Of a stretch of 64,000 nt of DNA, positions 9,639 through 37,760 are shown one piece after another. The DNA comes from Flavobacteriales bacterium. GTDB taxonomy: Bacteria > Bacteroidota > Bacteroidia > M30B66. The notes under the pieces are model-generated. The model was not told the origin of the DNA. It saw nothing but the letters and a program-made list of their open reading frames with translations, and ran no database searches. Both the position numbers and the translations under genes were made by a program. Position 1 is the stretch's first letter, and the number at the start of each line of letters is the position of its first letter. The stretch spans positions 29,627 through 93,626 of the forward strand of contig JBBAKX010000003.1 of the NCBI GenBank assembly GCA_040403315.1. Reading direction: 5' to 3'.

Positions 9639-9826
9639 ATAGTGTTGAGTGTAATCAGATTCATATCGGGTGTTATAAGGCATCCTTTACTATCCAATTT
9701 TATAAGGGTTACTGAAGAAACATCGCATTAGAGCAGGAAAATTTTAATTAACACTAAATCAGGCACTTAAATAGGTTTTAATATTACATTATTTCTTACA
9801 TGCCTCTTTTTACCAATGTTTCAAGA

Positions 9827-16521: not shown

Positions 16522-17634
16522 ATGCAGGTAATTGTAACTGTAAGCAACGATTTGTTCACCGATCAAAGGGTGCAGAAGGTTTGTAGCAGCATTATTCATC
16601 GTGGTCATTCGGTTATGCTTGTTGGCAGAGAGCTCCCGGAGAGCTTACCGCTTAATTTACCATACACCTCAAAACGATTCAAATTGTGGTTCAATTCGGG
16701 TCCACTTTTTTATATCAATTTGAATCTGAGACTCATGTTTTTTTTGTTGTTCAAAAGGTGCGATGCCATCCATTCGAACGATCTTGATACCTTATTGCCA
16801 TCATGGATTGTTGCAGGACTTCGTCGCAAAATGCTTGTGTACGATACCCATGAGTATTTCACGGGTGTACCTGAATTGCAAAAACGCCCCTTGGTTCGAC
16901 GCATTTGGGAATCCATTGAAGGACTAATTTTTCCAAAGCTAAAGCGTGTGATCACTGTAAACGATTCAATTGCTGAATTGTATCGAAAACGCTACGGAAG
17001 CGAGGCAATACAGGTGATGCGCAACATTCCTAACGCACAAGTAAATATTGAAACTAAGCAAGATTTTTCATCGGTTTTCCCTCCGGGGAAGTTTAGGATC
17101 ATCCTGCAAGGCAATGGCATCAACGTGGATAGAGGAGGGGAGGAGGCCGTTGAAATGATGAAAGATATTGATCGTGCGGTGCTCATCATTGCAGGAAATG
17201 GCGATGTTATTCAACAATTGAAAGACAATGTTATTGCAGCAAAGTTGGATGATCGGGTTATTTTTATTCCTCGAATGTCGTATTGTGAGCTGCTTGGCTT
17301 GACCCAGCTGTGTGATTTGGGCTTAACTTTAGACAAAGACACGAATATTAATTATCGTTTTAGTTTACCCAACAAATTGTTCGATTATTTACGCGCAGGA
17401 ATTCCTGTCTTGGCATCAGACTTACATGAAGTTCGAAAGATTGTTGAAACATATAAAACAGGCTGGATAGTAAAGGATGTTAATCCTAAGTTGTTAGCCG
17501 ATCATATAAATCTCCTGATTGATCAACCTGATGTTTACTTGCAAGTAAAATCAAATCTCTTAGAAGCATCAAATCAATTGTCTTGGGAGCAAGAATGCAA
17601 AGTTTTAGATAAATGGTATGGTAACGTAAAGTGA
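16522..17634 (+). CDS. Glycosyltransferase family 1/4
   Basis: C-terminal GT1 signature NKLFDYLRAGIPVLASDLHEVRKIVETYKTGWIV. Rossmann-like N-terminal domain. Divergently arranged with the murB-side operon. Confidence 0.6.
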   Translation: MQVIVTVSNDLFTDQRVQKVCSSIIHRGHSVMLVGRELPESLPLNLPYTSKRFKLWFNSGPLFYINLNLRLMFFLLFKRCDAIHSNDLDTLLPSWIVAGLRRKMLVYDTHEYFTGVPELQKRPLVRRIWESIEGLIFPKLKRVITVNDSIAELYRKRYGSEAIQVMRNIPNAQVNIETKQDFSSVFPPGKFRIILQGNGINVDRGGEEAVEMMKDIDRAVLIIAGNGDVIQQLKDNVIAAKLDDRVIFIPRMSYCELLGLTQLCDLGLTLDKDTNINYRFSLPNKLFDYLRAGIPVLASDLHEVRKIVETYKTGWIVKDVNPKLLADHINLLIDQPDVYLQVKSNLLEASNQLSWEQECKVLDKWYGNVK

Positions 17635-17822
17635 TACTTTCGGCCATAAAATATTATTCAGGATTATTTAATTATAATCGAAAAATATAGATTTTGGGTA
17701 TTCATTTAAAGGTGTTTTTACGGTACTGATTTGAATGATCCTGGCTATTTATAAATCAAATTTTGCTAATTATTTCGATCATTCAAATGCAATTCTATTT
17801 ATATTAATTTTGCCTAAAATAA

Positions 17823-18374
17823 TTGATCAAGACAATCATGAATAAATTAATTTCTACTTCGCTTATTTCGGCTTCGTTGTCTTTTTTGTTTCTTTCCTTC
17901 CAAACACCAACCGAATGGTTTAAAGGAGGGAATGCTGCAAAAAGCTATCAAATGGAAATTGATAAAACGAGTAAGGATGGATTAGCGATTTATAATCTAA
18001 AATCTATCGATTCGTTGATTACTGGCTTTGGATCGGTTATGAATTATATAGACCCTAAGCCCTTTCTTGGTAAGCGCGTTCGGATGACAGGTATGCTGAA
18101 AACCTTAGATATAAAGGAATGGTCAGGATTTTGGCTGCGAATTGATGAAAAGGATTCCAGATTACCCCTCGGCTTCGATAATATGCATGATGGTAGAACC
18201 GATCGATCCATTAAAGGAACTAACGATTGGAAGCGTTATGAAATCATTTTGGATGTACCTAAAGAATCTTATAAAATGGCTTATGGTGCTTTGATTTTTG
18301 GCGTTGGACAAATTTGGTTCAAGGATATCCAATTCGAAATTGTTGAAAAATCTATCAAAATTACTGGTCGTTAA
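17823..18374 (+). CDS. Hypothetical secreted protein (signal peptide, no recognised domain)
   Basis: N-terminal hydrophobic signal LISTSLISASLSFLFLSF. Beta-rich predicted mature region. Flanked by AT-rich non-coding DNA. Confidence 0.4.
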   Translation: MIKTIMNKLISTSLISASLSFLFLSFQTPTEWFKGGNAAKSYQMEIDKTSKDGLAIYNLKSIDSLITGFGSVMNYIDPKPFLGKRVRMTGMLKTLDIKEWSGFWLRIDEKDSRLPLGFDNMHDGRTDRSIKGTNDWKRYEIILDVPKESYKMAYGALIFGVGQIWFKDIQFEIVEKSIKITGR

Positions 18375-18886
18375 TGCATTTTTTTATATTCTTTAATTAT
18401 CATATCTTTAATTAATCATATTTAATTTGTGTAGTATTGATTCCGATTTCATCTGTCTAAATAAGATTATAGAATTTTCGAATTGGTTATGCTATAAATC
18501 ATACTAACGAGTGTGAATAATGTAAGTCAAATTTGATTTTATGTAATGCCGAATTCAAGACATTGTCTCTACTTTGTAATCCAAAAATAAACAATCCGAT
18601 TAGAGTTTTATTTAATAATATTTTCATTTAATTGAGTTTACTTGAGAATGTTCAATTCTGTTTTATTGCGTATTTATTTAAATTCAATATTTTTTCAGAA
18701 AAACAAACCATTTTCCATTAAAACCAGAGTTGTCTATCTCCTTATTTTTAAGCCTAATAAAATAGTTTGTTTTAATTTTAAGTTAAAGTAATAAACTGCT
18801 TGATGAGTAAATCATAATTAAAATTATTTTATAATTGGTCTATCGGATTATCCAAATTATTTTTAATCTAATTAATACAATCCACT

Positions 18887-19003
18887 ATGTCAAAAGAAAA
18901 ACAAGGCTCCAAGAAGTCCGATAAAACAACTGCTTCTAAAACTCCAAAAGAAAAGAAAACGCTTAAGGCATTAAAGAAAATTAGTAAAAATAACCAAGAG
19001 TAA
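18887..19003 (+). CDS. Candidate small ORF: 38-aa Lys/Ser/Thr-rich basic peptide
   Basis: ATG at 18887 to TAA at 19001-19003 gives MSKEKQGSKKSDKTTASKTPKEKKTLKALKKISKNNQE. Below the 60-aa ORF-track cutoff. Lies 12 nt upstream of the GH130-like gene in a 640-nt AT-rich spacer. Could be chance in AT-rich DNA. Confidence 0.25.
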   Translation: MSKEKQGSKKSDKTTASKTPKEKKTLKALKKISKNNQE

Positions 19004-19015
19004 ATAATTATTATT

Positions 19016-20056
19016 ATGTTGATTGTAGACAAACTTGGTATCGTGCTAGGTAAAACCTTAAATAGTTTTGAATGTGACGGCGTTTTAAACCCTGCGGTAA
19101 TAAAAGTGAATGATAAAATCCATATGTTTTATAGAGCTTTGGCAAAAGACAACTATTCTACAATAGGCTATTGTGTCTTGTCTTCCCCTATGGTCGTGGA
19201 AAGCAGAAATGAAATGCCATTACTTGTTCCACAAGCCGATTATGAGTATCAAGGTTTAGAAGATCCTAGAATTGTTCAAATTGATGGCCTTTATTATATG
19301 TCTTACACTGCATACAATGGTGTTAATGCATTGGGCGCTTTAGCTACCTCTACAGATTTAATGAAATGGAAAAAACACGGCATTATTGTTCCTCAAATTA
19401 CATATGATGAATTTAAACACTTTACCGAATCTAGTGGAGTAGTTCGCGAAAAATATAAACGATTCAATGCCCATCTATCTAGCCACGAAAAGCATGATCG
19501 TACAACTTTTATGTGGGATAAAAATCTTGTCTTTTTTCCTCGCAGAATTGATGGAAAACTCTTTTTTTTTCATAGAATAAAGCCAGATGTTCAAATTGTT
19601 GTTTCAATTAACTCGTTGGATGACTTAAACGTTGAATTTTGGCAAAGCTATTTCTTGAAATTTGATGATTACATAGTTCTATCTCCTAAATTTCAGCATG
19701 AAGTAAGCTATATCGGATGTGGATGTCCGCCAATTGAAACAGAGGCTGGCTGGCTTTTAATTTATCACGGCGTACATGATACAGTAAGAGGATATGTATA
19801 TACTGCTTGTGCAGCGTTGTTGGATTTAGATACACCTCAAAAAGAAATTGCACGACTACCTTACCCATTGTTTTTTCCCGAAAAAGAATGGGAGCTAAAA
19901 GGCGAAGTGAACAATGTTTGTTTCCCTACTGGTGCTATTCTTGAGGGAGATACTCTTTATATATATTATGGTGCAGCCGACGAAAGAATCGCAGTTGCGT
20001 CTTTAAAATTAAGTGAGTTATTGGCTGAATTGGCTTTAAATAAAATTAATAAATAA
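19016..20056 (+). CDS. GH130 / DUF377-family glycosidase or glycoside phosphorylase (beta-propeller fold)
   Basis: FECDGVLNPAVIK...HMFYRA...EDPRIVQIDGLYYMSYTAYNG...GWLLIYHGV...DTLYIYYGAADERIAVAS is the repeated pattern of GH130 mannoside phosphorylases and related DUF377 proteins. Confidence 0.7.
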   Translation: MLIVDKLGIVLGKTLNSFECDGVLNPAVIKVNDKIHMFYRALAKDNYSTIGYCVLSSPMVVESRNEMPLLVPQADYEYQGLEDPRIVQIDGLYYMSYTAYNGVNALGALATSTDLMKWKKHGIIVPQITYDEFKHFTESSGVVREKYKRFNAHLSSHEKHDRTTFMWDKNLVFFPRRIDGKLFFFHRIKPDVQIVVSINSLDDLNVEFWQSYFLKFDDYIVLSPKFQHEVSYIGCGCPPIETEAGWLLIYHGVHDTVRGYVYTACAALLDLDTPQKEIARLPYPLFFPEKEWELKGEVNNVCFPTGAILEGDTLYIYYGAADERIAVASLKLSELLAELALNKINK

Positions 20057-20059
20057 AAG

Positions 20060-22432
20060 ATGAGAACCGATATCGTATTGCATACGCCCAAAACAGAATT
20101 TTTAAGTCGCCCGCAAGTTTCTGTACAACTTTCAGTAAATCAAATGGATTCAATAGACGACGCGATTCTTCTTCCAGAAATACTCTTTGTTACATCATTT
20201 CCTTTTAGAGAATGTGGCATTGCAACATTTTCTCAAGATTTAATAGCTGCTTTACAAGATCAGTTTGAGCAATCTTTTAATTGTTCTATTTGTGCATTAG
20301 AATCTGATGCCGAGCAGCATGTTTACCCGATGCAGCCTCGCTTTATCTTAAATACCAGTCAACGAAATGCATTTGTAAAAACCGCATTTTTAATAAATCA
20401 TAGCGATAACATAGATTTAGTCGTAATTCAGCATGAATTTGGATTTTTTGCTGATAAAGAGCCTGATTTTAAGTTGTTTTTTGAAAGTATCCTGAAACCA
20501 GTAGTTTTTGTTTTTCACACTGTGCTTCCATCTCCTAGCAAGGAATTGCTTGATAAAATTCAAGATTTGGCTGCAATTTCTGCATCAATAGTTGTAATGA
20601 CAAATGATGCGGCAAAAATTCTTATCGATGATTACAATATTGCAGCTTATAAAATATCTGTAATTCCACATGGCACTCACTTAGTGCTGCCTTTAAATAA
20701 AAATACCTTAAAGAAAAAATATAATCTTACAGGTTTTAAAGTACTTTCAACTTTCGGTCTTTTAGGTAGTAGCAAGAGTATTGAAACCACTTTAATGGCT
20801 CTTCCAGAAATTCTTCTTCACCATCCTGATGTCTTGTTTTTGGTACTTGGGAAAACTCATCCTTCGATTGTAAAGAAAGATGGCGAAAAATATAGACATT
20901 ATTTAGAATCCTTGGTGTTTGAGTTAAAACTAGAGAACAATGTTAAGTTCGTGAACGAATACCTCTCATTACCTAATCTTTTGGAATATCTTCAATTAAC
21001 CGATATTTATTTGTTCACCTCTAAAGATCCTAACCAAGCTGTTAGTGGTACTTTTTCTTATGCAATTAGCAGTGGTTGCCCAGTAATATCAACTCCAATT
21101 CCTCATGCCAAAGAAGTTTTTCGAGATGGAGGAGGCGTAATAATAGGCTTTGAAGATAGCTTGCATCTCGCTGATGAAGCAATTGCTCTTCTCGATGACG
21201 AAGAACGTAGAATGGATATTTCATCAAATAGTTTCCATAAAATGGCATCCACAGTGTGGCAAAATTCAGCTATTTCTTATGGATTGTTGTTTGATAAATT
21301 AATTACTTCTGATTTTCATTTGAATTTTCGCATTCCAGTTTTTAATCTAAATCATATTCGCAGAATGACCACTGAATTAGGTATGATTCAATTCGCGAAA
21401 CTCTCGATCCCTGATTACAACTCTGGTTTTACTTTAGATGACAATGCAAGAGCGCTTATATCTATTGCACAGCATTATGAACTTTTTCATAGTGATAGTG
21501 ATTTAGAACTTATCAAAACATATTTGAATTTTATCGCTAGGTGCATGCAACCCAATGGTATATTTTTAAATTATGTTGATACCAACAAAGAATTTACTCA
21601 ACAAAACTACTCAGAGAACCTTGAAGATAGCAATGGTAGAGCCATTTGGGCATTAGGATACTTACATTCTCTTAAAAAAATTTTGCCAGATTCGCTACTT
21701 AATTTTTCCTTTGATTTAGTAAATAAAGCGTTGCCTCAATTACTGAAAATTCACTCTACTCGGGCGATGGCATTTATAATTAAGGGTTTACATTATATAG
21801 ATAATGAAGATTGTCAAATTGTATTAGAAGCACTTGCCAAACGGATGGCACTAATGTATAAACATGAAAAGAACAACCAATGGTTTTGGTTCGAACGTTA
21901 TATGACATATGCCAATGGACTTCTCCCCGAGGCTATGCTATGCGCTTACACAGCTACTTATGATGAAGAATATAGAATTATAGCATTAGAAAGTTTCGAT
22001 TTTTTATTGTCTATAATTTTGTCGGAGGATAAGATTAAGGTTATCTCTAATAAGGGATGGTTAATGAAAGATTCATTTAACCATTTGCAAATAGGTGGTG
22101 AGCAACCAATTGATGTAGCTTATACTATTTTAGCTCTTGAAAGATTCTACACTGTGTTTAAGAAGGATATTTACAAACAAAAGCTGAAAATTGCTTTTAA
22201 CTGGTTTTTAGGAGCTAATCATTTAAATCAAATAGTTTATAACCCTAGAACTGGTGGCTGTTATGATGGTTTAGAAGAAACGCACGTTAATCTTAATCAA
22301 GGTGCTGAATCTTCAATTAGTTATTTATTGTCTCGTTTAGCAATGAGTAGAATTTTAGAATCTGATAAAGGCAATTACATCTATGCAATTCCATCAACTG
22401 TTTTGATAATGGATGACACAGATATTTCTTGA
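20060..22432 (+). CDS. Two-domain protein: N-terminal GT4-family glycosyltransferase (about 400 aa) fused to a C-terminal (alpha/alpha)6-barrel glycoside-hydrolase-like domain (about 380 aa)
   Basis: N-terminal domain: ILFVTSFPFRECGIATFSQDL (GT4 N-terminal signature), then the GT1 core (STFGLLGSSKSIE...YLFTSKDPNQAVSGTFSYAISSGCPVISTPIPHAKE). C-terminal domain: DDNARALI, NGRAIWALGYL, WFERYMTYANGLLPEAM, LNQGAESSISYL, which resemble six-hairpin glycosidase/GDE-like folds. The fusion itself is directly visible as one uninterrupted ORF. Confidence 0.6.
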   Translation: MRTDIVLHTPKTEFLSRPQVSVQLSVNQMDSIDDAILLPEILFVTSFPFRECGIATFSQDLIAALQDQFEQSFNCSICALESDAEQHVYPMQPRFILNTSQRNAFVKTAFLINHSDNIDLVVIQHEFGFFADKEPDFKLFFESILKPVVFVFHTVLPSPSKELLDKIQDLAAISASIVVMTNDAAKILIDDYNIAAYKISVIPHGTHLVLPLNKNTLKKKYNLTGFKVLSTFGLLGSSKSIETTLMALPEILLHHPDVLFLVLGKTHPSIVKKDGEKYRHYLESLVFELKLENNVKFVNEYLSLPNLLEYLQLTDIYLFTSKDPNQAVSGTFSYAISSGCPVISTPIPHAKEVFRDGGGVIIGFEDSLHLADEAIALLDDEERRMDISSNSFHKMASTVWQNSAISYGLLFDKLITSDFHLNFRIPVFNLNHIRRMTTELGMIQFAKLSIPDYNSGFTLDDNARALISIAQHYELFHSDSDLELIKTYLNFIARCMQPNGIFLNYVDTNKEFTQQNYSENLEDSNGRAIWALGYLHSLKKILPDSLLNFSFDLVNKALPQLLKIHSTRAMAFIIKGLHYIDNEDCQIVLEALAKRMALMYKHEKNNQWFWFERYMTYANGLLPEAMLCAYTATYDEEYRIIALESFDFLLSIILSEDKIKVISNKGWLMKDSFNHLQIGGEQPIDVAYTILALERFYTVFKKDIYKQKLKIAFNWFLGANHLNQIVYNPRTGGCYDGLEETHVNLNQGAESSISYLLSRLAMSRILESDKGNYIYAIPSTVLIMDDTDIS

Positions 22433-22481
22433 ATCTATAATTAAGACTCCAGTTCCTAAATCATTATTGTATTATACCTTC

Positions 22482-22511
22482 AAAATGGAAGCAATAAAAA
22501 CTGCTTTCATT
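22482..22511. terminator. Candidate bidirectional hairpin between the convergent GT4-fusion and glgB genes
   Basis: AAATGGAAGCA-ATAAAAAC-TGCTTTCATTT. One mismatch in a 10-11 bp stem. U-rich on both sides. Confidence 0.4.
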
Positions 22512-24606
22512 TTGAATTATTTGCTTTTTTATCTGTTGTTTTCGTAGTTATTGATTTCAAGTTTTGTTTCAGAGGTTTCAAAACAATAACACTTAATGGA
22601 GGCAAATTTAAAGACACTGAATACTCACGGTTATTTCTAGCAATATTAGTAGCAGAATATTTGCGTATTTCGGAGTAATTGCTACCATTATATTTGGTAT
22701 CGTCGCTATTGAATATTACATCATAATCTCCACTTTTAGGCATCCCCATTCGGTAATTTTCATGTGGAACTGGAGTTAAATTCGCAACCACAACAACAAA
22801 ATCATTTTGATCTTCTGCTTTACGTAAATAAGATATAACACAATTTTTATAATCGCTTAGGTCTATCCATTCAAAACCTTTTGCATTAAAATCTAACTCA
22901 TACAAAGCCTTTTCTTTTTTGTACAATGCGTTTAATGATTTTATCAATTCTTGAATTCCTTTGTGCGGTGCGAATTCGAGCAAATGCCAATCTACCGAAC
23001 TTTTATAATTCCATTCACCATATTGCCCAATTTCCGAGCCCATAAATAATAATTTTGTTCCTGGATGTGTAAACATGCAGCTGTATAATGCACGTAAATT
23101 CGAAAATCGATGCCATTCATCACCCGGCATTCTTTGCAGCAAAGAGCCTTTCCCATGAACCACTTCGTCATGAGAAAGTGGCAACATGAAATTTTCATTA
23201 AATGCATAATACAATGAAAAGGTAATGTCGTTTTGATGGTGTTCGCGATAAATTGGATCAGTTCCAAAATACCGCAATGTATCATGCATCCAGCCCATCA
23301 TCCATTTCATTCCAAATCCGAGTCCGCCTAAATATACCGGACGAGAAACCATTGGCCACGAAGTTGATTCTTCTGCAATCATTTGGATTTCAGGAAAATG
23401 AGTATACATTGTTTCGTTTAATTCTTTCATAAACGAAATCGCCTCCAAATTCTCATTTCCACCGTGAATATTGGGCTCCCATTCTCCTTCTTTTCTTGAA
23501 TAATCCAAATAAAGCATCGATGCCACAGCGTCAACTCGAAGCCCATCAACATGGTAATATTCTGCCCAAAACATTGCAGAACTTATTAAAAATGCACGAA
23601 CTTCATGTCTACCGTAATTGAAAATTAACGACTTCCAATCAGGGTGGTAACCTTTCCGCGGATCTTCATGCTCATATAATCTAGTCCCGTCGAAATTCGC
23701 CAACGCAAATGTATCTTCTGGGAAATGTGAAGGCACCCAATCCATTATTACTCCAATTTCATTTTCATGAAAAATGTCAATCAAATACATCAGATCTTGC
23801 GGACTTCCGAATCTAGATGTAGGCGCGAAATAACCCGTAGTTTGATAGCCCCATGATCCTGAATAAGGATGTTCGGTAAGTGGCATAAATTCCACATGCG
23901 TGAAACCCATTTCTTTAATGTACGGAACCAATTCTTCTGCCATTTCGCGGTAACTGATGTAGGCATCTTCTGCATCTCCCGATTTTTTCCAAGAACCTGC
24001 ATGCAATTCGTAAACCGACCACGGTTGTTGCAAAGTGCCTCGTTTTTTTCGCGATGACCAACGATTGGCGTTCCAGGTATAATTCAAGTCCCAAACTATT
24101 GAAGCGCGCTTTGGCGGCAATTCGCTGAAAAATGCAAATGGGTCGAATTTTTCTAAAATGTAACCCGTTTGCGCGTTCCTAATCATGTATTTGTAAAGAC
24201 TTCCATGTGCAACGCCTGCAACAAAAGTTTCCCAAATCCCTGATCCATCTAACCTCGGTTGTAATTTGCCTTGTTCTGGATTCCAGCCATTAAAATCGCC
24301 GATTACGCTAACTGCCGCTCCATTCGGCGCCCAAACAGCAAAATAAGTTCCCTGAATTCCATTGTTTTCGCAAAGATGTGAACCTAATTTTTCATACAAT
24401 TTAAAATGCTTCCCTTGTTTGAATAAATAAATATCCATGTCAGAAAACAAACTGAAATGCGATTTAACACTGTTTAAATCAATATTATTTCCCTCCGGGG
24501 AAGGGGCCGATTCGATTGTTCTAGCCTTAGGTTTTAAAGCCTTTTTTTCGATTGGATCGGCTTCTTTTTTTGCCTTAGTTTTCTTGGATATTTTTTTTTC
24601 AATCAT
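22507..24606 (-). CDS. glgB: 1,4-alpha-glucan branching enzyme GlgB (GH13_9), with Lys-rich N-terminal extension
   Basis: GTYFAVWAPNGAAVSVIGDFNGWN (CBM48 region). GH13 catalytic regions GLRVDAVASMLY, EESTSWP, HDEVVHGK. About 50-aa N-terminal tail KKISKKTKAKKEADPIEKKALKPKAR. Confidence 0.9.
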   Translation of the reverse strand: MIEKKISKKTKAKKEADPIEKKALKPKARTIESAPSPEGNNIDLNSVKSHFSLFSDMDIYLFKQGKHFKLYEKLGSHLCENNGIQGTYFAVWAPNGAAVSVIGDFNGWNPEQGKLQPRLDGSGIWETFVAGVAHGSLYKYMIRNAQTGYILEKFDPFAFFSELPPKRASIVWDLNYTWNANRWSSRKKRGTLQQPWSVYELHAGSWKKSGDAEDAYISYREMAEELVPYIKEMGFTHVEFMPLTEHPYSGSWGYQTTGYFAPTSRFGSPQDLMYLIDIFHENEIGVIMDWVPSHFPEDTFALANFDGTRLYEHEDPRKGYHPDWKSLIFNYGRHEVRAFLISSAMFWAEYYHVDGLRVDAVASMLYLDYSRKEGEWEPNIHGGNENLEAISFMKELNETMYTHFPEIQMIAEESTSWPMVSRPVYLGGLGFGMKWMMGWMHDTLRYFGTDPIYREHHQNDITFSLYYAFNENFMLPLSHDEVVHGKGSLLQRMPGDEWHRFSNLRALYSCMFTHPGTKLLFMGSEIGQYGEWNYKSSVDWHLLEFAPHKGIQELIKSLNALYKKEKALYELDFNAKGFEWIDLSDYKNCVISYLRKAEDQNDFVVVVANLTPVPHENYRMGMPKSGDYDVIFNSDDTKYNGSNYSEIRKYSATNIARNNREYSVSLNLPPLSVIVLKPLKQNLKSITTKTTDKKANNSK

Positions 24607-24626
24607 AAGTTTAATGTTTACTGTAA

Positions 24627-26276
24627 TCAGGCATCCAAATAATGGCGTACAAATTTAACAAGACTTTGCAATGGAATTACTGTCCATTCTGGACGATTGT
24701 TTATTTCATACCCTAATTCATAAATTGCCTTTTTGAAAGAATACACCTGTAAAAGTGCATTGATTTTATCTTCATCTGGTAAAATATTACTTCCTGATGT
24801 TGTTTTGATGTATTCGCCTAGATAATAGCGACTTACATAATGATACCAGACATCAACTACCGCCATAAGTTTGTCTGTTAAATGCGGTTTATCAGCAAAT
24901 TCAGTAAATATTACAGAGTAAGCTGCATATCGAAATGATCTCATCATTCCAGCAACATCTTTTAGTGGTGGATATTTTAATCTCCTTTCATGGTGAGGCT
25001 TGTCGGGTTCTCCTTCAAAATCCAAAATAAAAAAATCATCCCCACTCATCAACACTTGTCCTAAATGATAATCACCGTGAATTCGGATTCTTTCTCCTTT
25101 CATTTCTCGCTGAAGCACCAAGTTAAAGAACCTTTTTACACGCTCTTTTCCTTTGATCATTTCTACAGCATCTTCACGCAGTTTTCCACTTATCCTTTCC
25201 AAATTGGCTTCGAGCATTCCAAATCTAGAATCAACAAGGTATTCGATGTCTTTTAGTAATTTATTTTGAAATGCTTCATCAATAGGTTCAGGATCAAAAT
25301 CAGAATGTCCTTGAGATTGGCTAAGTGCAAGATGCATTTCTGCAGTTCTTTTCCCCAAAAGGGATGCTTTTTTAAATACCGATTCACCCATCAACATTCT
25401 TAATTCTGAAGGTGTCTGTTCAAGGCCCAGCGACAGAGTATGAGGTTTAATTGGCAAAGGTTTTAAGTGGTAATCAATCTGAATTGCTCTTTCCAGAAAG
25501 TGCTTCACTTCTTGAGTGAAATATTTCCATGCATCACCATTATTCACAACCAATTCCTGTAACATCATTACTAACATTGGCCCCTTTTCAGGATGAATCA
25601 CCGAAATACTTCCAGCCAATTTTGGCAATTGATGAAAAGTGTTTTGTGCAGTCAACCGACTCACCATTTCATAGTCTGGATTGGTCATATATTCCACTTT
25701 TCTGAAAAGTTTCAGGAAGTACTTGTTGCCATAAATTATTGCCGAATTACTTTGGTCTGAATTTAAAACGGATGAAACTCCGAAATCTCCTGCTGAATCT
25801 TTTAATGATAGACCTTTATCTGCCGAAAGTGTGTAATGTTCACCTTTAATTTCGGTCGATTTTGATATCAAATTGGGCAATGTATTTCGAAAATCTTCGT
25901 CATATATAGCGTCAATAATATAGCCTGAATTAACTGAATTTTCAAGCCTACATAAAATGGAAATCGACGGCGAATGAAGTTGGTTTTCATTTACAAATGC
26001 CAGTGGGAGTGTGTAAATTTCTGTTGGCCCATCTGGATATCTTACTTTTAAAAGTAGGAAATGCACAAAATTCTTACCTGTTTGTACAGGAATATTTTGG
26101 TAAATTTTAATGGCACTGATCATCCTCGCCTTCCCTCCAAACCACCTGCATTTTCTGAGGTATGATGGTAGTAGCTGATTTTCTATTTGATGCACGTAAC
26201 GATCGTTCTGAAATAAATCATTCCATTCGCAATTCAATGTAGGTTGAATGGTGTCTTTAATCCTTGTATCCAGCAT
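24627..26276 (-). CDS. mak: Maltokinase (Mak/Pep2-like aminoglycoside-phosphotransferase-fold kinase) with N-terminal cap domain
   Basis: APH-type kinase motifs: IHGDYHLGQVL (HGD catalytic loop) and ILDFEGEP (DFG-like). Sits between glgE and glgB as in the GlgE pathway. I chose the ATG at 26274-26276 (MLDTRIK) as start. The ORF-track start 26327 would overlap the glgE 3-prime end by 40 nt. Confidence 0.6.
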   Translation of the reverse strand: MLDTRIKDTIQPTLNCEWNDLFQNDRYVHQIENQLLPSYLRKCRWFGGKARMISAIKIYQNIPVQTGKNFVHFLLLKVRYPDGPTEIYTLPLAFVNENQLHSPSISILCRLENSVNSGYIIDAIYDEDFRNTLPNLISKSTEIKGEHYTLSADKGLSLKDSAGDFGVSSVLNSDQSNSAIIYGNKYFLKLFRKVEYMTNPDYEMVSRLTAQNTFHQLPKLAGSISVIHPEKGPMLVMMLQELVVNNGDAWKYFTQEVKHFLERAIQIDYHLKPLPIKPHTLSLGLEQTPSELRMLMGESVFKKASLLGKRTAEMHLALSQSQGHSDFDPEPIDEAFQNKLLKDIEYLVDSRFGMLEANLERISGKLREDAVEMIKGKERVKRFFNLVLQREMKGERIRIHGDYHLGQVLMSGDDFFILDFEGEPDKPHHERRLKYPPLKDVAGMMRSFRYAAYSVIFTEFADKPHLTDKLMAVVDVWYHYVSRYYLGEYIKTTSGSNILPDEDKINALLQVYSFKKAIYELGYEINNRPEWTVIPLQSLVKFVRHYLDA

Positions 26277-26287
26277 AATTATTCGGA

Positions 26288-28246
26288 TTAAGAGATTGTG
26301 TTGATAGTTAATTTGAAAATGTGACAAGGCACCAGATCCGGTAAAAGTTCAACATAATTCCATTGTTTATTCCAATAATAATTAGAATTGTCCATCAAGT
26401 CTGTTAAATCTATCATTTCACCTTCAATTACTTGCATTTCTTTTAGTGGAAGTTTTACCCATCCACTTTGTTTGTTTGTCGGATCCATATTTATAATCAC
26501 TAGTATTTTGTTGCTCCCATCATCAGTCGACTTATAGAACGCCAATAACATGTCATTATCGGTTTCACAGAACTGAATGTTGAATGTACTGTGAAATGCC
26601 GAATTGTGATTACGTATAGAATTTATTTTTCCTATTAAATTGTGAATTGGAGATTCTAATCGCCAATCCCAATGGCGGACTTCATATTTTTCCGAATTGA
26701 AATATTCTTCCTTGCCTGCAACTGGTTCATTTACACAGTATTCATGAACAGGGCCGTACATACCATAATTGGATGATAGTGTAGCTGCCAAAACATACCG
26801 CATAGCCGCATGATTGGAGCTTGTGTTTTGCAAATATTCTGGCAGAATGTCGGGGGTATTTGGCCAAAAATTCGCTCTGAAATACTCCCGAAGTTCAGTT
26901 TGTGTTAATTGATTTAGATATTCTATTAATTCAGATTTGTCTTTTCGCCATGTAAAGTAGCTATATGATTGATGAAAACCAATTTTTGCCAATCGAGCCA
27001 TGATTTTTGGACGCGTAAAGGCTTCACTAAGAAACAAAACATCCGGATGATCGCGTCGCATTTCTGCCATAATCCATTCCCAAAAAACAAATGGTTTGGT
27101 ATGGGGATTATCAACTCTAAATATTCGAATTCCCTTTTCAATCCAAAATTTAATTACATATTTGAGCGCATTCCAAAGATTTTCCCAATCGTCGGTTTCA
27201 AAATGAATCGGTAAAACATCTTGGTATTTTTTCGGAGGATTTTCTGCGTATTGCACCGTCCCATCTGGCCGCCATTTAAACCATGATGGATGTTCTTTCA
27301 CCCATGGATGATCTGGTGAACATTGGTATGCCAAATCCATTGCAATTTCCACATTCAACGACTGAGCATGAATTATCAGGTTCTTAAATTCTTCTAAAGT
27401 GCCTAATGTGGGATTAATTGCAGTATGTCCACCTTCTGAAGCACCTATTGCCCATGGAGAGCCAGGTTCTCCCGGAAGTGCTGTAGTAGAATTGTTTTTG
27501 CCTTTTCGGTGCGAAACACCTATTGGATGAACAGGCGGAAAATAAACAGTATCAAAACCCAATTGAGCCAATCGAGAAATTATTGGCAAACAGTCGTTGA
27601 AGGTTCCCGGTCGATTTGTATCTGGCGAGGATGACCTAGGAAAAAATTCATACCAAGAACTAAATGAGGCTTTTAAACGATCTACTTGTACTGGATATGA
27701 TGCTGAACTACTAGCAAATTGCTTTAAAGGAAAATTTTCTATGACTTTATGCATCCTTTCGCTAGCTGCTGCCTCAACAGCTACCGCGTAATTGCCTGAT
27801 TCTAGCTTTGAAAGCAAATCCATAATCGCCTCCTTTTCCGCTCTTTTATTCGCTGCAGCTATTTCTTTTAAGAGTTCAGCACCAATGCGCAAGTCTAATG
27901 TAAGTTCATCTCCTGCTGCTAATTTCTTTTGAAAGCCTTTATACCAAGTCATCGCATGGTCGACCCATGCTATTACTGCATATTCGTAAGGAACTGTTTC
28001 TTCCACCCGAAATTCACCTTTCCAAATATCATTTTCAGTAATAAGAATTTGATTTTCAGACCACTTCTTGGTTCCCAGTTTTCTGTAAATCAATCTTGCT
28101 GAAATTATGTCATGCCCATCAGCAATTAGGTCTGCAGTAACGCATATAACCTCTCCAACTATCCTTTTAATTGGAAATTTCCCGCCTTCTACCTGTGGTG
28201 AAATATTTTCAATGACTACTCTCGCGCGTGCTTCGTATTTTTTCAT
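26288..28246 (-). CDS. glgE: Alpha-1,4-glucan:maltose-1-phosphate maltosyltransferase GlgE (GH13_3)
   Basis: N-terminus RARVVIENISPQVEGGKFPIKRIVGEVICVTADLIADGHD matches the GlgE domain-N signature (V.IE.VSP.VD.G.FP.KRVVGE...DGHD). GH13 catalytic core FRVDNPHTKP. Adjacent to mak and glgB. Confidence 0.85.
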   Translation of the reverse strand: MKKYEARARVVIENISPQVEGGKFPIKRIVGEVICVTADLIADGHDIISARLIYRKLGTKKWSENQILITENDIWKGEFRVEETVPYEYAVIAWVDHAMTWYKGFQKKLAAGDELTLDLRIGAELLKEIAAANKRAEKEAIMDLLSKLESGNYAVAVEAAASERMHKVIENFPLKQFASSSASYPVQVDRLKASFSSWYEFFPRSSSPDTNRPGTFNDCLPIISRLAQLGFDTVYFPPVHPIGVSHRKGKNNSTTALPGEPGSPWAIGASEGGHTAINPTLGTLEEFKNLIIHAQSLNVEIAMDLAYQCSPDHPWVKEHPSWFKWRPDGTVQYAENPPKKYQDVLPIHFETDDWENLWNALKYVIKFWIEKGIRIFRVDNPHTKPFVFWEWIMAEMRRDHPDVLFLSEAFTRPKIMARLAKIGFHQSYSYFTWRKDKSELIEYLNQLTQTELREYFRANFWPNTPDILPEYLQNTSSNHAAMRYVLAATLSSNYGMYGPVHEYCVNEPVAGKEEYFNSEKYEVRHWDWRLESPIHNLIGKINSIRNHNSAFHSTFNIQFCETDNDMLLAFYKSTDDGSNKILVIINMDPTNKQSGWVKLPLKEMQVIEGEMIDLTDLMDNSNYYWNKQWNYVELLPDLVPCHIFKLTINTIS

Positions 28247-28400
28247 AAGCTATTTGATGAATACCTAACGATGATACGCAATATAAGAATGTCAACAAGA
28301 CACTAAGTAAAAAAGTGAAATTTCTTAAGTTGTTCTTTATGAGATAAATAGGGATAAATCTCTGTTTTAATCTGTTGAGATGTACATACTGTAGCATGAT

Positions 28401-30989: not shown

Positions 30990-31397
30990 TTGCGAAATAA
31001 TTTAGGGAAAATGATAGTTCGAGTTGTTCTGAATTTGTTTATTGTTGTTTGTTTGGCTTCCTGTGCTAAAGATGCAGGAGAAGGCGGAACATCCTCTATA
31101 CAAGGAAAGATTTTTGGGTATGATATAAATGCAGCTGGAGTCGTAACCGATAGCGCATACGTTCAGGATGCTCGCGTTTACATCAGCTATGGAGACGGTA
31201 CAACAGTCGATAATGATGTTAGAACATCCTACACTGGAGATTACATTTTCCGTGGCCTAAGAAAGGGCATTTATACAATTTTCGTTTATTCGCAATGTAA
31301 TGATTGCCCATTCAATCAAGAGGTTGTGAAGCAAACTTTTGAAATTACTGAAAACAAACAGGAAGTTATTGTTCCTGATTTAAAGATTTTCGATTAA
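30990..31397 (+). CDS. Lipoprotein with carboxypeptidase-regulatory-like (transthyretin-like) beta-sandwich domain
   Basis: Lipobox LASC after a hydrophobic stretch. The internal ATG at 31011 (MIVRVV) is the likelier start. GKIFGYD...ARVYISYGDGTTVDNDVRTSYTGDYIFRGLRKGIYTIFVY matches CarbopepD_reg-like repeats. Confidence 0.4.
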   Translation: MRNNLGKMIVRVVLNLFIVVCLASCAKDAGEGGTSSIQGKIFGYDINAAGVVTDSAYVQDARVYISYGDGTTVDNDVRTSYTGDYIFRGLRKGIYTIFVYSQCNDCPFNQEVVKQTFEITENKQEVIVPDLKIFD

Positions 31398-32179
31398 TGA
31401 CAGAAGATCAGAATTCATTTTCTGCCCTTCATGATTTTGAAGCAGTAAGCCTACAGCAACTCGATGGTGTAAAGCTTATGAATCGAGTAGATCAAAAGTT
31501 TATTCTGCATCAGAGAGAGCTTAATTCTTTATTATTGGAAATTCAAGCATATTACAATGTTTTAGAAATAAAAAACAAAAGGATTTTCCGCTACAGCAGT
31601 TTATATTACGATACAGATGAGCAAAATTTTTATTCTGATCACCACAACGGGAAACCCAATCGAATTAAAATTCGAAGTCGTGAATACTTAGACACAGGAA
31701 CTGCATTCTTCGAAATAAAGAAAAAAATTAAAGGATTTCGTACAGAAAAATATCGTGTTGAAAAATCAGGTGATAAATTGAATGATCAACTTTCAGAACG
31801 AGAATTACTAAAAACTCATCGTCTAGATCATATTTCTCTAGTGCCTTCAATTATTGTTGAATATTCGAGAATTTCAATCATCGCAAAAGATTTTTCTGAG
31901 CGAGTAACAATCGACACAGATCTCTCTTTTAAAAAGGAAAGTGGAGAAGAGTCAATGAGAGGTCTCGTTATCATTGAGGTGAAGCAAGATCAAGTAAAAC
32001 GTGAAAGCCCAATCGTTGAAGCACTTCGGAAACGAAGAAACAGACCTTTTGGAATTTCTAAATACGCTATGGGCATGGTGCTCATGAATGCAGCAATAAA
32101 AACGAATGCTTTTAGACATAAAGTATCCAAAATCAAACAACTGATTTCAAGAAATGGAGCCAATAGACGCAGTGAATGA
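31397..32179 (+). CDS. VTC-domain protein (CYTH-like triphosphate tunnel; polyphosphate-polymerase-like domain)
   Basis: 260 aa, cytoplasmic. NRVDQKFIL...YYDTDEQNFYSDHHNGKPNRIKIRSREYLDTGTAFFEIKKK...EKYRV resembles bacterial VTC-domain proteins. Start overlaps the upstream stop (TAATGA). Confidence 0.55.
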   Translation: MTEDQNSFSALHDFEAVSLQQLDGVKLMNRVDQKFILHQRELNSLLLEIQAYYNVLEIKNKRIFRYSSLYYDTDEQNFYSDHHNGKPNRIKIRSREYLDTGTAFFEIKKKIKGFRTEKYRVEKSGDKLNDQLSERELLKTHRLDHISLVPSIIVEYSRISIIAKDFSERVTIDTDLSFKKESGEESMRGLVIIEVKQDQVKRESPIVEALRKRRNRPFGISKYAMGMVLMNAAIKTNAFRHKVSKIKQLISRNGANRRSE

Positions 32180-32816
32180 AAGCCTTAGCGCATCTGGTGC
32201 GCATAGCTTAACCGATTTTGCTATTCGATTCGGTATTAACTTATTTGTGATTTTTGTACTGGTTAGGTTATTGTACTATCCTCTGCGAAAAAATCGTGAT
32301 TTTCTTTTCACGTTTTTCCTCTTTAATATCATCAATTTCCTCATCTGCTTTTTACTGAGCAGCGCTAAATTAAAAATGGGATTTGCCTTCGGGCTCTTCG
32401 CTATTTTCTCGATTCTTCGCTATAGAACAGTAACAGTGCCTGTTAGAGAAATGGGCTATTTTTTTATCTCTGTTACCCTTGGTATCATAAATGCCTTAAC
32501 TACCAACGAACAAGGAATGGTTATGTTGGTGATTGCAAATTTGGTGATCCTCAGTGTAGCTTGGATTATTGATCATAAAGTAAAGGTAACTCACGAAAAT
32601 TTTAAGGAGGTAATTTACGATCGAATTGATTTAATTTCTCCTGATAAACGAGAGGAAATGATAAATGATCTGCGACAAAGAACTGGATTAAACATTCACA
32701 GAGTGGAGTTTTCAAGAATCGATTTTTTTAAAGACACAGCTCGGATTTTCGTTTTTTACAACGATTATAGAAATGATGCCGAAGTTGCTGTTAGTGAAGG
32801 CGGAGATGATGATTAA
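32154..32816 (+). CDS. DUF4956-like polytopic membrane protein (usual partner of bacterial VTC-domain proteins)
   Basis: 220 aa with 4-5 TM helices followed by a soluble C-terminal domain. Overlaps the VTC gene by 26 nt. Known co-occurrence pattern. Confidence 0.5.
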   Translation: MEPIDAVNESLSASGAHSLTDFAIRFGINLFVIFVLVRLLYYPLRKNRDFLFTFFLFNIINFLICFLLSSAKLKMGFAFGLFAIFSILRYRTVTVPVREMGYFFISVTLGIINALTTNEQGMVMLVIANLVILSVAWIIDHKVKVTHENFKEVIYDRIDLISPDKREEMINDLRQRTGLNIHRVEFSRIDFFKDTARIFVFYNDYRNDAEVAVSEGGDDD

Positions 32817-33519
32817 TAAAATAATAGTTTTAGCTTTTCTTATTGCTTCAACAACCGTTGTTTCTGCTCAGGCTGATCTACGTGATCTTCATCTATGGAC
32901 AGCCATAGAAATCAACCACAAACTCAACAAAAAGATTGAACTCTCCGTGCAGTTTCAATCTCGTTTCGACCGTGAGGTAAATCGCCTTCGCGGCAATTAT
33001 TTTAGCATTGATGCATCTCGAAAACTTGGAAATGGATTCAGACTTTTGTTAGATGCACGATTTGCAACTTCCAGCAGATGGGATAAGTGCCGCTTCGGGA
33101 TTGGCTTGCAGAAAAATATCAAGTTCGATGAAAAAGGAAACTCTGAATTAAAATTAAGAGCCCTTTATCAATACCAGTTTTTCCCAACAGCTGATGTTCA
33201 ATATAGCATCGATATTCCACAACAGAACTACCGATTTAGGGCTTCATTCACCACGAAAATCATCAAAAAAACTTACTTAACCATCCAATCTGAACCCATG
33301 TGGAGAGCAGAAGCAGGCAGCTTTTTCTTCCGCAGAGTGCGTTCAACAGTTAGTGTGAAAAGATCTTTGCCCGGACCATGGGCAATTCAAGTTGGTTATA
33401 CACGCCAATTAAACTTTAACAACCCAGTCGATATCCAAATTATTTCGACAACGTTATCATACGACTGGAAGCGAAAAGCGAAAGCTGAAAAAAGAACTAT
33501 CACCACTCCTGCCTTCTAG
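32806..33519 (+). CDS. Secreted beta-rich protein (DUF2490-like, putative outer-membrane beta-barrel)
   Basis: Signal peptide MMINKIIVLAFLIASTTVVSAQA. Alternating hydrophobic beta-strand pattern. Start ATGATGATT overlaps the upstream TAA stop. Family assignment is from memory and tentative. Confidence 0.4.
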   Translation: MMINKIIVLAFLIASTTVVSAQADLRDLHLWTAIEINHKLNKKIELSVQFQSRFDREVNRLRGNYFSIDASRKLGNGFRLLLDARFATSSRWDKCRFGIGLQKNIKFDEKGNSELKLRALYQYQFFPTADVQYSIDIPQQNYRFRASFTTKIIKKTYLTIQSEPMWRAEAGSFFFRRVRSTVSVKRSLPGPWAIQVGYTRQLNFNNPVDIQIISTTLSYDWKRKAKAEKRTITTPAF

Positions 33520-36707: not shown

Positions 36708-37760
36708 TTATTTTGCGCCTAATATCTCTAGGTACCTCAATAGAGCTTGGTTTTCCTGCTCCAAGATAAAGGCTACGAATTCTTGTTTTTGGTTTTCTGT
36801 TTGGGCCTGTTCTAATGCATGATAATATTTCTTTCTAGTGTTTAAGTCGCCTTTAATATTGGCAATTACGAAACCGTAGCGCAGTAATATTAGGTTCATG
36901 AGTAACCTTGAAGTGCGGCCGTTTCCATCAATAAAGGGGTGGATTGTAACCAAGCGCTGATGTGCCTCAGCCGCTAGGACCACTGGATGTAGTTGAGATT
37001 CTGACTTGCTAAGCCATGCAAAAAAATCTTCCATTTGTATAGGCACCAAATAGGGTGGAGGAGGCATGTGTTTACTTCCAGTTATCATTACTTGAACCTG
37101 CCTGTAACGACCTGCATTTTCTGGATCGATTCCACGAAGGATTAAATTGTGCAATGCAAGCACATCCCTTTCACGAATGGGCGTGTTTTTCGAAGCCAAA
37201 TCTTTCATGTAAACGATTGCTTCTTGGTGATTTATTGCTTCCAGATGCTCGCGCATACTTTTTCCAGAAATAGTAAGCCCTTCATTAACAACTAAGTCTG
37301 TTTCTTGAAGTGTAAGTGTATTTCCTTCAATCCGATTGCTTTCGAAGGTGTATTCTAGTTCAAGGGCTTGTGTAATTCTGTAACTATCGAATTTCCTAAA
37401 TTCTTGAAGTTTACTTCTGTGATCTTCAAGTGCACTTAGTATGTCATCAAATGCTCTGTAAGGTGCAATTGGCTCGCGAAGTGCCGAAACTGTTTCTTCA
37501 GAAAACAAGGCAAGCACATCGGGTAGTAGTTGAATATCAGAGCCCAATTCACGGTTGATTTTTTCTTTCAACCAATGGGTGATTAGTTGCTTCGTAGGAA
37601 TCTCGAGCAAGTTCGCTAAATCTAAGATTTGGTTCCTGGTTGGAAGCCTGCTGCCGGTTTCAAATTTACTAACCAATGCTTGGTCAATACCCAATTGCTG
37701 TGCTACTTCGCGAACGAGCAGCCTTTTCTTTTCTCTAGCGTTTTTTAGGATTGTTTGCAT
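36708..37760 (-). CDS. HTH(XRE)-Fic domain protein (AMPylation / adenylyltransferase family)
   Basis: N-terminal HTH LVREVAQQLGIDQALVSKFETG. Canonical Fic motif HPFIDGNGRTSRLLMN. Confidence 0.8.
   Translation of the reverse strand: MQTILKNAREKKRLLVREVAQQLGIDQALVSKFETGSRLPTRNQILDLANLLEIPTKQLITHWLKEKINRELGSDIQLLPDVLALFSEETVSALREPIAPYRAFDDILSALEDHRSKLQEFRKFDSYRITQALELEYTFESNRIEGNTLTLQETDLVVNEGLTISGKSMREHLEAINHQEAIVYMKDLASKNTPIRERDVLALHNLILRGIDPENAGRYRQVQVMITGSKHMPPPPYLVPIQMEDFFAWLSKSESQLHPVVLAAEAHQRLVTIHPFIDGNGRTSRLLMNLILLRYGFVIANIKGDLNTRKKYYHALEQAQTENQKQEFVAFILEQENQALLRYLEILGAK

Follow-up and report, generated by a model that had tools for sequence, protein, structure and literature searches.

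The GlgE pathway of Mycobacterium and Streptomyces comprises trehalose synthase (TreS), the maltokinase Pep2/Mak, the maltosyltransferase GlgE and the branching enzyme GlgB. Clear homologues of Mak, GlgE and GlgB, arranged as an operon and keeping the catalytic and substrate-binding residues that were checked, are encoded in a 64-kb stretch of low-GC Bacteroidota DNA (the window, meaning the whole stretch that was analyzed), within the interval 17635-28246 studied here. The same interval carries, on the opposite strand, a gene of glycoside hydrolase family 130 (GH130) followed by a gene for a glycosyltransferase family 4 (GT4)-like domain fused to an (alpha/alpha)6 barrel. A first-pass annotation had treated the interval as one composite glycan-metabolism block. 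The analysis indicates instead that, in this freshwater Bacteroidota genome, the interval is probably a chance juxtaposition of separate transcription units and not one composite system; its GlgE part is ordinary, and the predicted mannoside module formed by the GH130 and fusion genes is the more interesting part.

Compared with the Mycobacterium and Streptomyces systems, treS is neither linked nor fused in the window, Mak is a 549-aa protein of the 'TreS_Cterm' type (441-455 aa in mycobacteria), GlgB has a Lys-rich, disordered-looking tail, and the host belongs to Bacteroidota. Within this phylum, a GlgE pathway with a GH13_9-type GlgB is present in PUL18 of Pontibacter sp. SGAir0037 (PMC11206854), where the cassette lies among alpha-glucan-degrading enzymes, as it also does in one of the loci compared here (L097); the Pontibacter locus additionally has a predicted TreS (GH13_16) and TreY/TreZ-type genes, whereas none of these occurs in the 64 kb of the window. 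In the GlgE network of P. aeruginosa, maltose for Mak can be supplied via maltooligosaccharide disproportionation instead of TreS (PMC11046441), which is the mechanism favored here for the window, although P. aeruginosa retains a TreS-Pep2 fusion and no malQ was seen in the window.

For the GH130 and fusion genes, the closest described cluster is Teth514_1785-1796 of Thermoanaerobacter sp. X-514, which encodes two GH130 beta-1,2-mannoside phosphorylases, a GT4 alpha-mannosyltransferase, a mannose-1-phosphate guanylyltransferase and hypothetical proteins (PMC4264767). Both loci link a cytoplasmic beta-1,2-type GH130 to a GT4 gene, whereas the window contains no ABC transporter, GH5 or guanylyltransferase gene, and its GT4-like domain is fused to the (alpha/alpha)6 barrel. 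The mycobacterial proteins ManT (GT4, 7qsg) and MmpH ((alpha/alpha)6 hydrolase, 7qsj) provide an analogy only: neither was a top match, identities were 10-17%, and their methylmannose-polysaccharide system has no GH130, while the window module has no methyltransferases. YPO2471 of Yersinia pestis (PDB 7tem), a stand-alone protein with an exported annotation and no assigned function, offers no functional lead. A literature search retrieved no paper on the GH130/GT4/barrel module or on YPO2471.

Organization of the Interval

All the genes listed by the first-pass annotation were recovered at their coordinates from the open reading frame (ORF) list and family scans; the Lys-rich small ORF was absent from that list. 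The features of the two convergent gene groups are the following:

18887-19003, plus strand: Lys-rich small ORF of 38 aa, 12 nt upstream of the GH130 gene
19016-20056, plus strand: GH130 enzyme (PF04041, 179 bits)
20060-22432, plus strand: GT4 fusion protein of 790 aa, of which the first ~415 residues match GT4-type Pfam families and the last ~370 match nothing
20060-21319, plus strand: N-terminal GT4-like domain of the fusion, with GT-B fold and Glycos_transf_1 match
21320-22432, plus strand: C-terminal (alpha/alpha)6-barrel domain of the fusion, of no described family
22479-22516: hairpin (15-bp stem) where the fusion gene and glgB converge, its right arm overlapping the last glgB codons
22507-24606, minus strand: glgB, 1,4-alpha-glucan branching enzyme (GH13_9 type), with CBM48, GH13 and Alpha-amylase_C domains
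24627-26276, minus strand: mak (pep2), stand-alone maltokinase of 549 aa, the frame being open back to TTG 26327
26288-28246, minus strand: glgE, alpha-1,4-glucan:maltose-1-phosphate maltosyltransferase (GH13_3 type), from family domains and alignment with GlgE1

On the minus strand, glgE and mak are separated by 11 nt and mak and glgB by 20 nt, counting from the mak start at ATG 26276 that was assigned by the gene caller on L005, a public copy of the contig that is identical to the window and whose gene calls were used for start positions. On the plus strand, only 3 nt lie between the GH130 gene and the fusion gene. The hairpin at 22479-22516, detected by a consensus scan, is a likely bidirectional terminator. 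The short gaps within each group and the hairpin between them are consistent with two separate convergent operons.

Comparison with other loci supported the independence of the two operons. The genome-contig search with the single fusion protein as query returned four loci; the loci compared included the close relatives L001, L005 and L006, as well as L002 (Flavobacteriales), L003 (Sphingobacterium) and L004 (Bacteroidales). The closest public relative found was L001, a freshwater metagenome-assembled genome (MAG) labelled 'Bacteroidetes bacterium RE-26jul17-123'. The GH130 gene is located directly upstream of the fusion gene in L002, L003 and L004, no glg gene follows the fusion in the 10 kb of downstream DNA of L002 or of L004, and L007 likewise has the GH130-fusion pair without glg genes; among L001 to L004, the glg cassette is kept beside the module only in the close relative L001. 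Furthermore, a metagenome scan with an alignment of stand-alone barrel members gave 80 loci (33-62% identity), none of which (0/80) had glgE or mak nearby. Conversely, the glgE-mak-glgB cassette occurs without the GH130-fusion pair in six loci (L013, L014, the Chitinophagales MAG L015, L096, L097 and L098, each with ~10 kb of flank). Since the pair occurs elsewhere without glg genes and glgE or mak accompanied none of the metagenome loci, the adjacency of module and cassette in the window is lineage-specific, and the first-pass view of the interval as a single composite unit was not supported.

The glgE-mak-glgB Operon

The proposal that glgE, mak and glgB form a GlgE-route operon was well supported by family cut-offs, gene spacing and conserved catalytic residues. 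GlgE contains the GlgE_dom_N_S domain (PF11896, 171.8 bits), PF00128 and the GLGE_C domain (PF21702, 81.1 bits), and its residues 7-643 align with S. coelicolor GlgE1 (549 bits, 1e-163). In the HMMER alignment, K355, Y357, R392, D394, N395, E423 and D480 (S. coelicolor numbering) are all identical in the window protein, and the aligned segments include ENPPKKYQD, RIFRVDNPH, (S)EAFTRP and NTPDIL. Of these residues, D394 is the nucleophile and E423 the acid/base, and K355, Y357, R392 and N395 belong to the maltose-1-phosphate site; all the site residues checked against GlgE1 are present.

The kinase scored 402.6 bits with the maltokinase model TIGR02457 (cut-off 375), compared with only 69 bits for the glucosamine kinase model NF041273 (cut-off 550). 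Among solved structures it is closest to three mycobacterial maltokinases (2e-38 to 3e-36), compared with 4e-12 for a glucosamine kinase. The catalytic HGD, the Mg-binding DFE, the P-loop Ser and the ATP-binding Lys, which are the kinase motifs named in a 2024 review (PMC11046441), are kept in the segments RIHGDYHLGQV, LDFEGEP, DQSNSA and FLKLFRK, respectively. The 11 maltose contacts of MtbMak (W222, D322, H324, P344, S367, Y370, K426, Y429, E430, Y433 and R438; PMC4171701) are likewise all conserved (11/11): ten were counted on the alignment with 4o7o, and the match to W222 was deduced from the M. vanbaalenii alignment (...GW... vs ...AW...). Alignment with solved Mak structures thus identifies the protein as a maltokinase and not as a kinase of other small molecules.

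The N-terminal cap extension of roughly 120 aa that had been attributed to this kinase proved to be the ordinary Mak_N_cap domain (PF18085, 40.5 bits vs cut-off 22). The protein spans positions 22-527 of the 529-position TIGR02457 model and, because of this end-to-end alignment, its length is normal for a family that was first defined on TreS-fused maltokinases; the ~100 residues by which it exceeds mycobacterial Mak are distributed between the N-terminus and an internal insertion. GlgB exceeded the cut-offs of its family models (NF003811, 943 bits vs 741; TIGR01515, 877 vs 464). The presence of a Lys-rich N-terminal tail of ~50 aa was confirmed, K or R accounting for 13 of the first 50 residues. 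L001 shares a tail of comparable composition, L013 has a longer one, that of L014 measures ~14 aa and L015 has none, which makes the tail a lineage-variable, low-complexity extension.

Given the conservation of the GlgE site residues, the Mak motifs and the maltose contacts, the GlgE-route interpretation stands, both conditions that the first-pass annotation had named as refuting it having turned out in its favor. By homology, Mak, identified by its sequence, would convert maltose and ATP to alpha-maltose-1-phosphate, GlgE would transfer the maltosyl unit from this donor onto an alpha-1,4-glucan, and GlgB would add alpha-1,6 branches, the expected product being a glycogen-like storage glucan.

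TreS and the Source of Maltose

The absence of TreS, one of the first-pass observations, held for the 64 kb of the window: no further GH13 protein was found among its ORFs of at least 400 aa, and the TreS halves of four TreS-Mak fusions gave no tblastn match in it at E <= 1e-3, while the Mak halves matched the kinase gene. The implication that a cassette without treS is unusual was not sustained. Each of the ~50 Mak sequences nearest to that of the window (40-100% identity) is a stand-alone protein of ~540-555 aa, and TreS-Mak fusions appear only at 34-39% identity to the window Mak. The order glgE-mak-glgB was found in the six loci named above, in unrelated neighborhoods, with Mak identities of 59% (L013), 57% (L096), 48% (L014), 40% (L097), 37% (L015) and 36% (L098), and none of the six has a recognizable treS within 10 kb. 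The lack of treS within this distance in six distant Bacteroidota loci indicates that the treS-less cassette is the normal arrangement in the clade with stand-alone Mak, and it suggests that the pathway is entered there with maltose and not with trehalose. In this respect the cassette represents a modest refinement of a known pathway, namely a compact, treS-unlinked operon with a stand-alone maltokinase that is usual in one Bacteroidota clade.

In L097 (3132-17581), the cassette lies inside an alpha-glucan cluster composed of genes for GH31, a GH13 bearing a carbohydrate-binding module, glgE, mak, glgB, GH57 and GH13, and this position among alpha-glucan-degrading enzymes makes maltose from alpha-glucan breakdown a plausible feed. 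Maltose would not be made by the genes neighboring the window cassette and would most likely come from the breakdown or uptake of maltodextrin or alpha-glucan by enzymes of the amylase/MalQ type, or else from a treS located elsewhere. The two extra GH13 proteins of L097 were also considered as TreS candidates and rejected, as they reached 82 and 101 bits with a TreS model whose cut-off is 678 and are amylase/cyclomaltodextrinase-like.

A stronger version of this explanation is that the lineage truly lacks TreS and that the cassette serves as a dedicated route by which maltose, imported or released through amylase/MalQ, is turned into glycogen; this would be a form of the GlgE pathway that is independent of trehalose and typical of Bacteroidota. 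Such a route is quite possible, if short of probable. The stand-alone nature of all close Mak homologues (at least 40% identity), the six further cassettes without a recognizable treS, the surroundings of the L097 cassette and the MalQ bypass of TreS reported in P. aeruginosa (PMC11046441) are all in its favor; however, the inspection covered 10-kb flanks and treS is often unlinked, the Pontibacter locus pairs a predicted TreS (GH13_16) with GlgE (PMC11206854), and a trehalose-phosphatase gene 8 kb from the L098 cassette indicates that some of these genomes have trehalose metabolism.

The GH130-Fusion Module

The GH130 protein has no signal peptide, and its best solved relatives are the 1,2-beta-oligomannan phosphorylase 9fj8 and the beta-1,2-mannobiose phosphorylase 7fip of Thermoanaerobacter, both at ~1e-42. 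According to Li et al. (PMC7660257), beta-1,2-mannoside phosphorylases are characterized by an E-D proton donor, no catalytic base, an R/H phosphate pair and a K at subsite +1. The window enzyme shows this GP-beta-1,2 pattern, with the E-D motif (GLEDPR), K, the R/H phosphate pair and D; its GLEDPR, FHR and YHG motifs align to the Teth514 enzymes, with a single proton-donor Asp and no catalytic base. The E/K pair at subsite +1 that marks beta-1,2 specificity is also present, E preceding the catalytic D and K being part of a 'KN' motif. From these residues the protein is predicted to be a cytoplasmic beta-1,2-mannoside phosphorylase, and a residue pattern of this type argues that it is not an alpha-glucan enzyme.

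Database relatives of the fusion protein number more than 7900 and typically show ~60-65% identity and lengths of 750-830 aa, and the barrel domain alone as query retrieved 2926 clusters at 50% identity, including both fused and stand-alone forms. The names of cluster members were limited to 'glycosyltransferase involved in cell wall biosynthesis' and, in the case of one fragment, 'YyaL (SSP411 family)', and the barrel matched neither a Pfam nor an NCBIfam family. In 78/80 metagenome loci, the barrel is directly preceded by a GT4-like domain. Of the 57 loci with enough upstream DNA, 36 have a GH130 gene immediately upstream on the same strand, 12 a more distant one within the locus, and nine none. 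In L011/L012 (3687-7089), a separate GT4 gene and the stand-alone barrel gene after it share 4 nt at their junction, which corresponds to a split fusion. The split pair adjoins a gene for a HAD Hydrolase_3/S6PP-type phosphatase in a genome of 27.5% GC (GCA_041320695.1), an arrangement that, as an analogy, recalls two-step synthase plus phosphatase routes to compatible solutes.

In the enzymes of family GT4 such as MshA and PimA, the donor site is formed by the Arg of a G-R-x motif and by both Glu of an E-X7-E motif. The GT4-like domain of the fusion carries an alternative conserved set, consisting of C52, H125, E126, H153, H204, K239, T266-H267-P268, R279, S329, T331 and E352, which suggests an unusual donor or a non-transferase role. 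An assignment of the barrel to GH76-like enzymes through an invariant DD(N) was tried and rejected: in the barrel model the motif opens the first long helix (domain residues 40-41), a position that probably does not match that of the catalytic Asp pair of GH76, and for this reason no catalytic assignment was made for the barrel.

The Lys-rich small ORF gave no family match. A similar peptide (MSKxKxGxxKSDKK...KEKK...KK, 38-43 aa) is encoded upstream of GH130 in L001 (6780-6896), L002 (6720-6839), L007/L008 (8825-8950 in L007), L018 and L027, and a gene was called at this position in L005 and L007. The ORF is less clear in L056 and missing from the majority of the more distant module loci, being conserved in the closest clade.

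Proposed Role of the Module

The Lys-rich ORF, GH130 and the GT4-like/barrel fusion would together constitute an independent, widely conserved cytoplasmic module. As a best guess, it would build a mannoside and recycle it phosphorolytically, GH130 acting at beta-1,2 linkages with alpha-mannose-1-phosphate as product or substrate. The Thermoanaerobacter cluster and the mycobacterial ManT and MmpH enzymes are precedents for such a system, in both cases by analogy only. The first-pass suggestion that the GH130 and fusion genes supply or remodel the GlgE substrate found no support, given the beta-1,2-mannoside pattern of GH130 and the lack of any specific GlgM likeness in the GT4-like domain, and the two genes should not be annotated as alpha-glucan metabolism. 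The more explicit form of this alternative, in which the GT4 domain is a GlgM-like maltose-1-phosphate synthase or another GlgE feeder and the block is a single alpha-glucan unit replacing TreS, is very improbable: GlgM ranked only 11th among generic GT4 folds and gave no sequence match even with the family profile, the domain lacks the Arg and the E-X7-E residues that bind the nucleotide sugar, it is constantly paired with a GH130 of the beta-mannoside type and had neither glgE nor mak nearby in any of the 80 loci, and the operon's own Mak already supplies maltose-1-phosphate.

A broader and as yet doubtful proposal is that the GH130-fusion operon, with the Lys-rich ORF in some lineages, is an undescribed cytoplasmic system of thousands of Bacteroidota and related genomes, in which an intracellular beta-1,2-mannoside is made and recycled as a mannogen-like reserve or stress solute, the GT-B domain having a non-canonical donor site and the barrel founding a new carbohydrate-active enzyme family. 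If this were true, the position of the module beside the alpha-glucan cassette and VTC/DUF4956 genes in the window, and near YtxH/DUF5670 genes elsewhere, would reflect a storage or stress regulon. The GH130/GT4-fusion pair, which is unstudied, widespread and tightly conserved, is a sensible place to look for a new enzyme family and for a new intracellular mannoside pathway of bacteria.

Several observations weigh against a mannoside module that is independent of a maltose-fed glg cassette. GH130 falls well below the NCBIfam equivalog cut-offs (NF052550, 188.6 vs 450; NF050092, 152.5 vs 550) and, compared with 9fj8 and 7fip, contains ~40 inserted residues, which leaves its exact substrate uncertain; the real substrate may differ from those of the characterized beta-1,2-mannoside enzymes. 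In the GT4-like domain, the Arg of G-R-x is replaced by L/F/M in 74/74 homologues, and the Glu pair of E-X7-E is replaced by Q326 in 75/75 and by Y334 in 72/75, profile alignments instead placing the first Glu position at P324, so the domain might be no nucleotide-sugar transferase at all. The loss of the donor motif was given moderate weight only, because other glycosyltransferases of the window also depart from the textbook motif. Moreover, a retaining enzyme of the GT4 type would make alpha linkages, which GH130 does not cleave. The adjacency of the glg cassette and the module is kept in the close relatives L001, L005 and L006, which makes co-regulation possible in this lineage, and treS may lie elsewhere in the genome.

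With regard to the genes near the module, small stress-type YtxH/DUF5670 genes occur in several unrelated loci, close to GT4-barrel or stand-alone barrel genes in 9/80 metagenome loci as well as in L007 and L009 (L007 12468-12927, L009 4301-7309, L018, L022, L026, L041, L043, L046, L047, L061 and L074). As raw counts, they hint at a stress link for the module.

Secreted-Protein Gene and AT-Rich DNA

A third transcription unit would be formed by a variable secreted-protein gene, located upstream of the GH130 module in the most AT-rich intergenic DNA of the window. The features of this part and of the right end of the interval are the following:

17635-17837: AT-rich intergenic region with 24.1% GC, the second most AT-rich of the window
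17838-18374, plus strand: small predicted secreted protein of 178 aa starting at ATG 17838, the ORF opening at TTG 17823 (183 aa)
18375-18886: AT-rich intergenic region of 512 bp with 22.3% GC, the most AT-rich of the window
28247-28400: divergent intergenic region of 154 bp between glgE and the gene for a PglF-like dehydratase, with 29% GC, ordinary for the window

The protein of 17838-18374 has a signal-peptide-like N-terminus, as judged from its sequence (MNKLISTSLISASLSFLFLSF), and gave no Pfam or NCBIfam match even at E <= 1. Its gene is called with 178 aa on the identical contig L005 and is missing from the otherwise syntenic L001, which represents an indel and makes the gene variable among close relatives.

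The window has a GC content of 39% overall and of ~39% in coding regions, and its intergenic DNA averages 33.5%, so the two regions that flank the secreted-protein gene stand well below this mean. The idea that the block is bounded by AT-rich DNA therefore applies to its left end (24% and 22% GC) and fails at its right end, where 28247-28400 has an ordinary 29%. The right-hand region is presumed to contain the promoter of the glgE operon, and the region 18375-18886 probably carries that of the GH130 operon. Within the latter, a 37-bp block (18511-18547) that is 89% identical to L001 6471-6507 is the sole stretch common to the spacers of both genomes, and it could be a regulatory site. Searches of the AT-rich region and of the DNA upstream of both operons with Rfam (gathering threshold across the whole window and an E-value threshold on 17500-19100), for repeats and with a Bacteroidetes-type promoter pattern gave nothing meaningful, and a sigma-70 scan found fewer sites than in shuffled controls.

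Horizontal acquisition of the entire block, as a glycan island with AT-rich borders, is highly unlikely. In its favor, the secreted-protein gene is an indel relative to L001, and the left end of the block has the two intergenic regions of the window that are richest in AT. This interpretation was rejected because L001 keeps the order murB-GT4a-GH130-fusion-glgB-mak-glgE-PglF-like, with proteins 69-93% identical, and because the coding GC of the block (~32-43%) is unremarkable, bracketing the window coding mean of 39%. In addition, the right boundary shows no AT enrichment, variability is confined to the small secreted-protein gene, and no repeats, tRNA or integrase flank the block.

Other Genes of the Window

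The interval is flanked by envelope-glycan genes, namely a DegT aminotransferase gene, several glycosyltransferase genes, murB and the gene for the PglF-like dehydratase. At 31397-33519 on the plus strand, ~3 kb from glgE, are genes with VTC, DUF4956 and DUF2490 domains; a VTC-DUF4956 pair is also found ~6 kb upstream of glgE in the distant L097 (441-1864), and a CotH gene lies at the edge of L096 (1-1259). These genes may reflect a recurrent polyphosphate/alpha-glucan storage neighborhood, or chance, with one or two of six loci concerned. Elsewhere in the window, the minus strand encodes a 1759-aa ORF at 4404-9683 that matches no Pfam family at E <= 1e-5, and a helix-turn-helix (HTH)-Fic fusion gene at 36708-37760, also on the minus strand, adjoins a further GT4-type glycosyltransferase gene (37787-39055).

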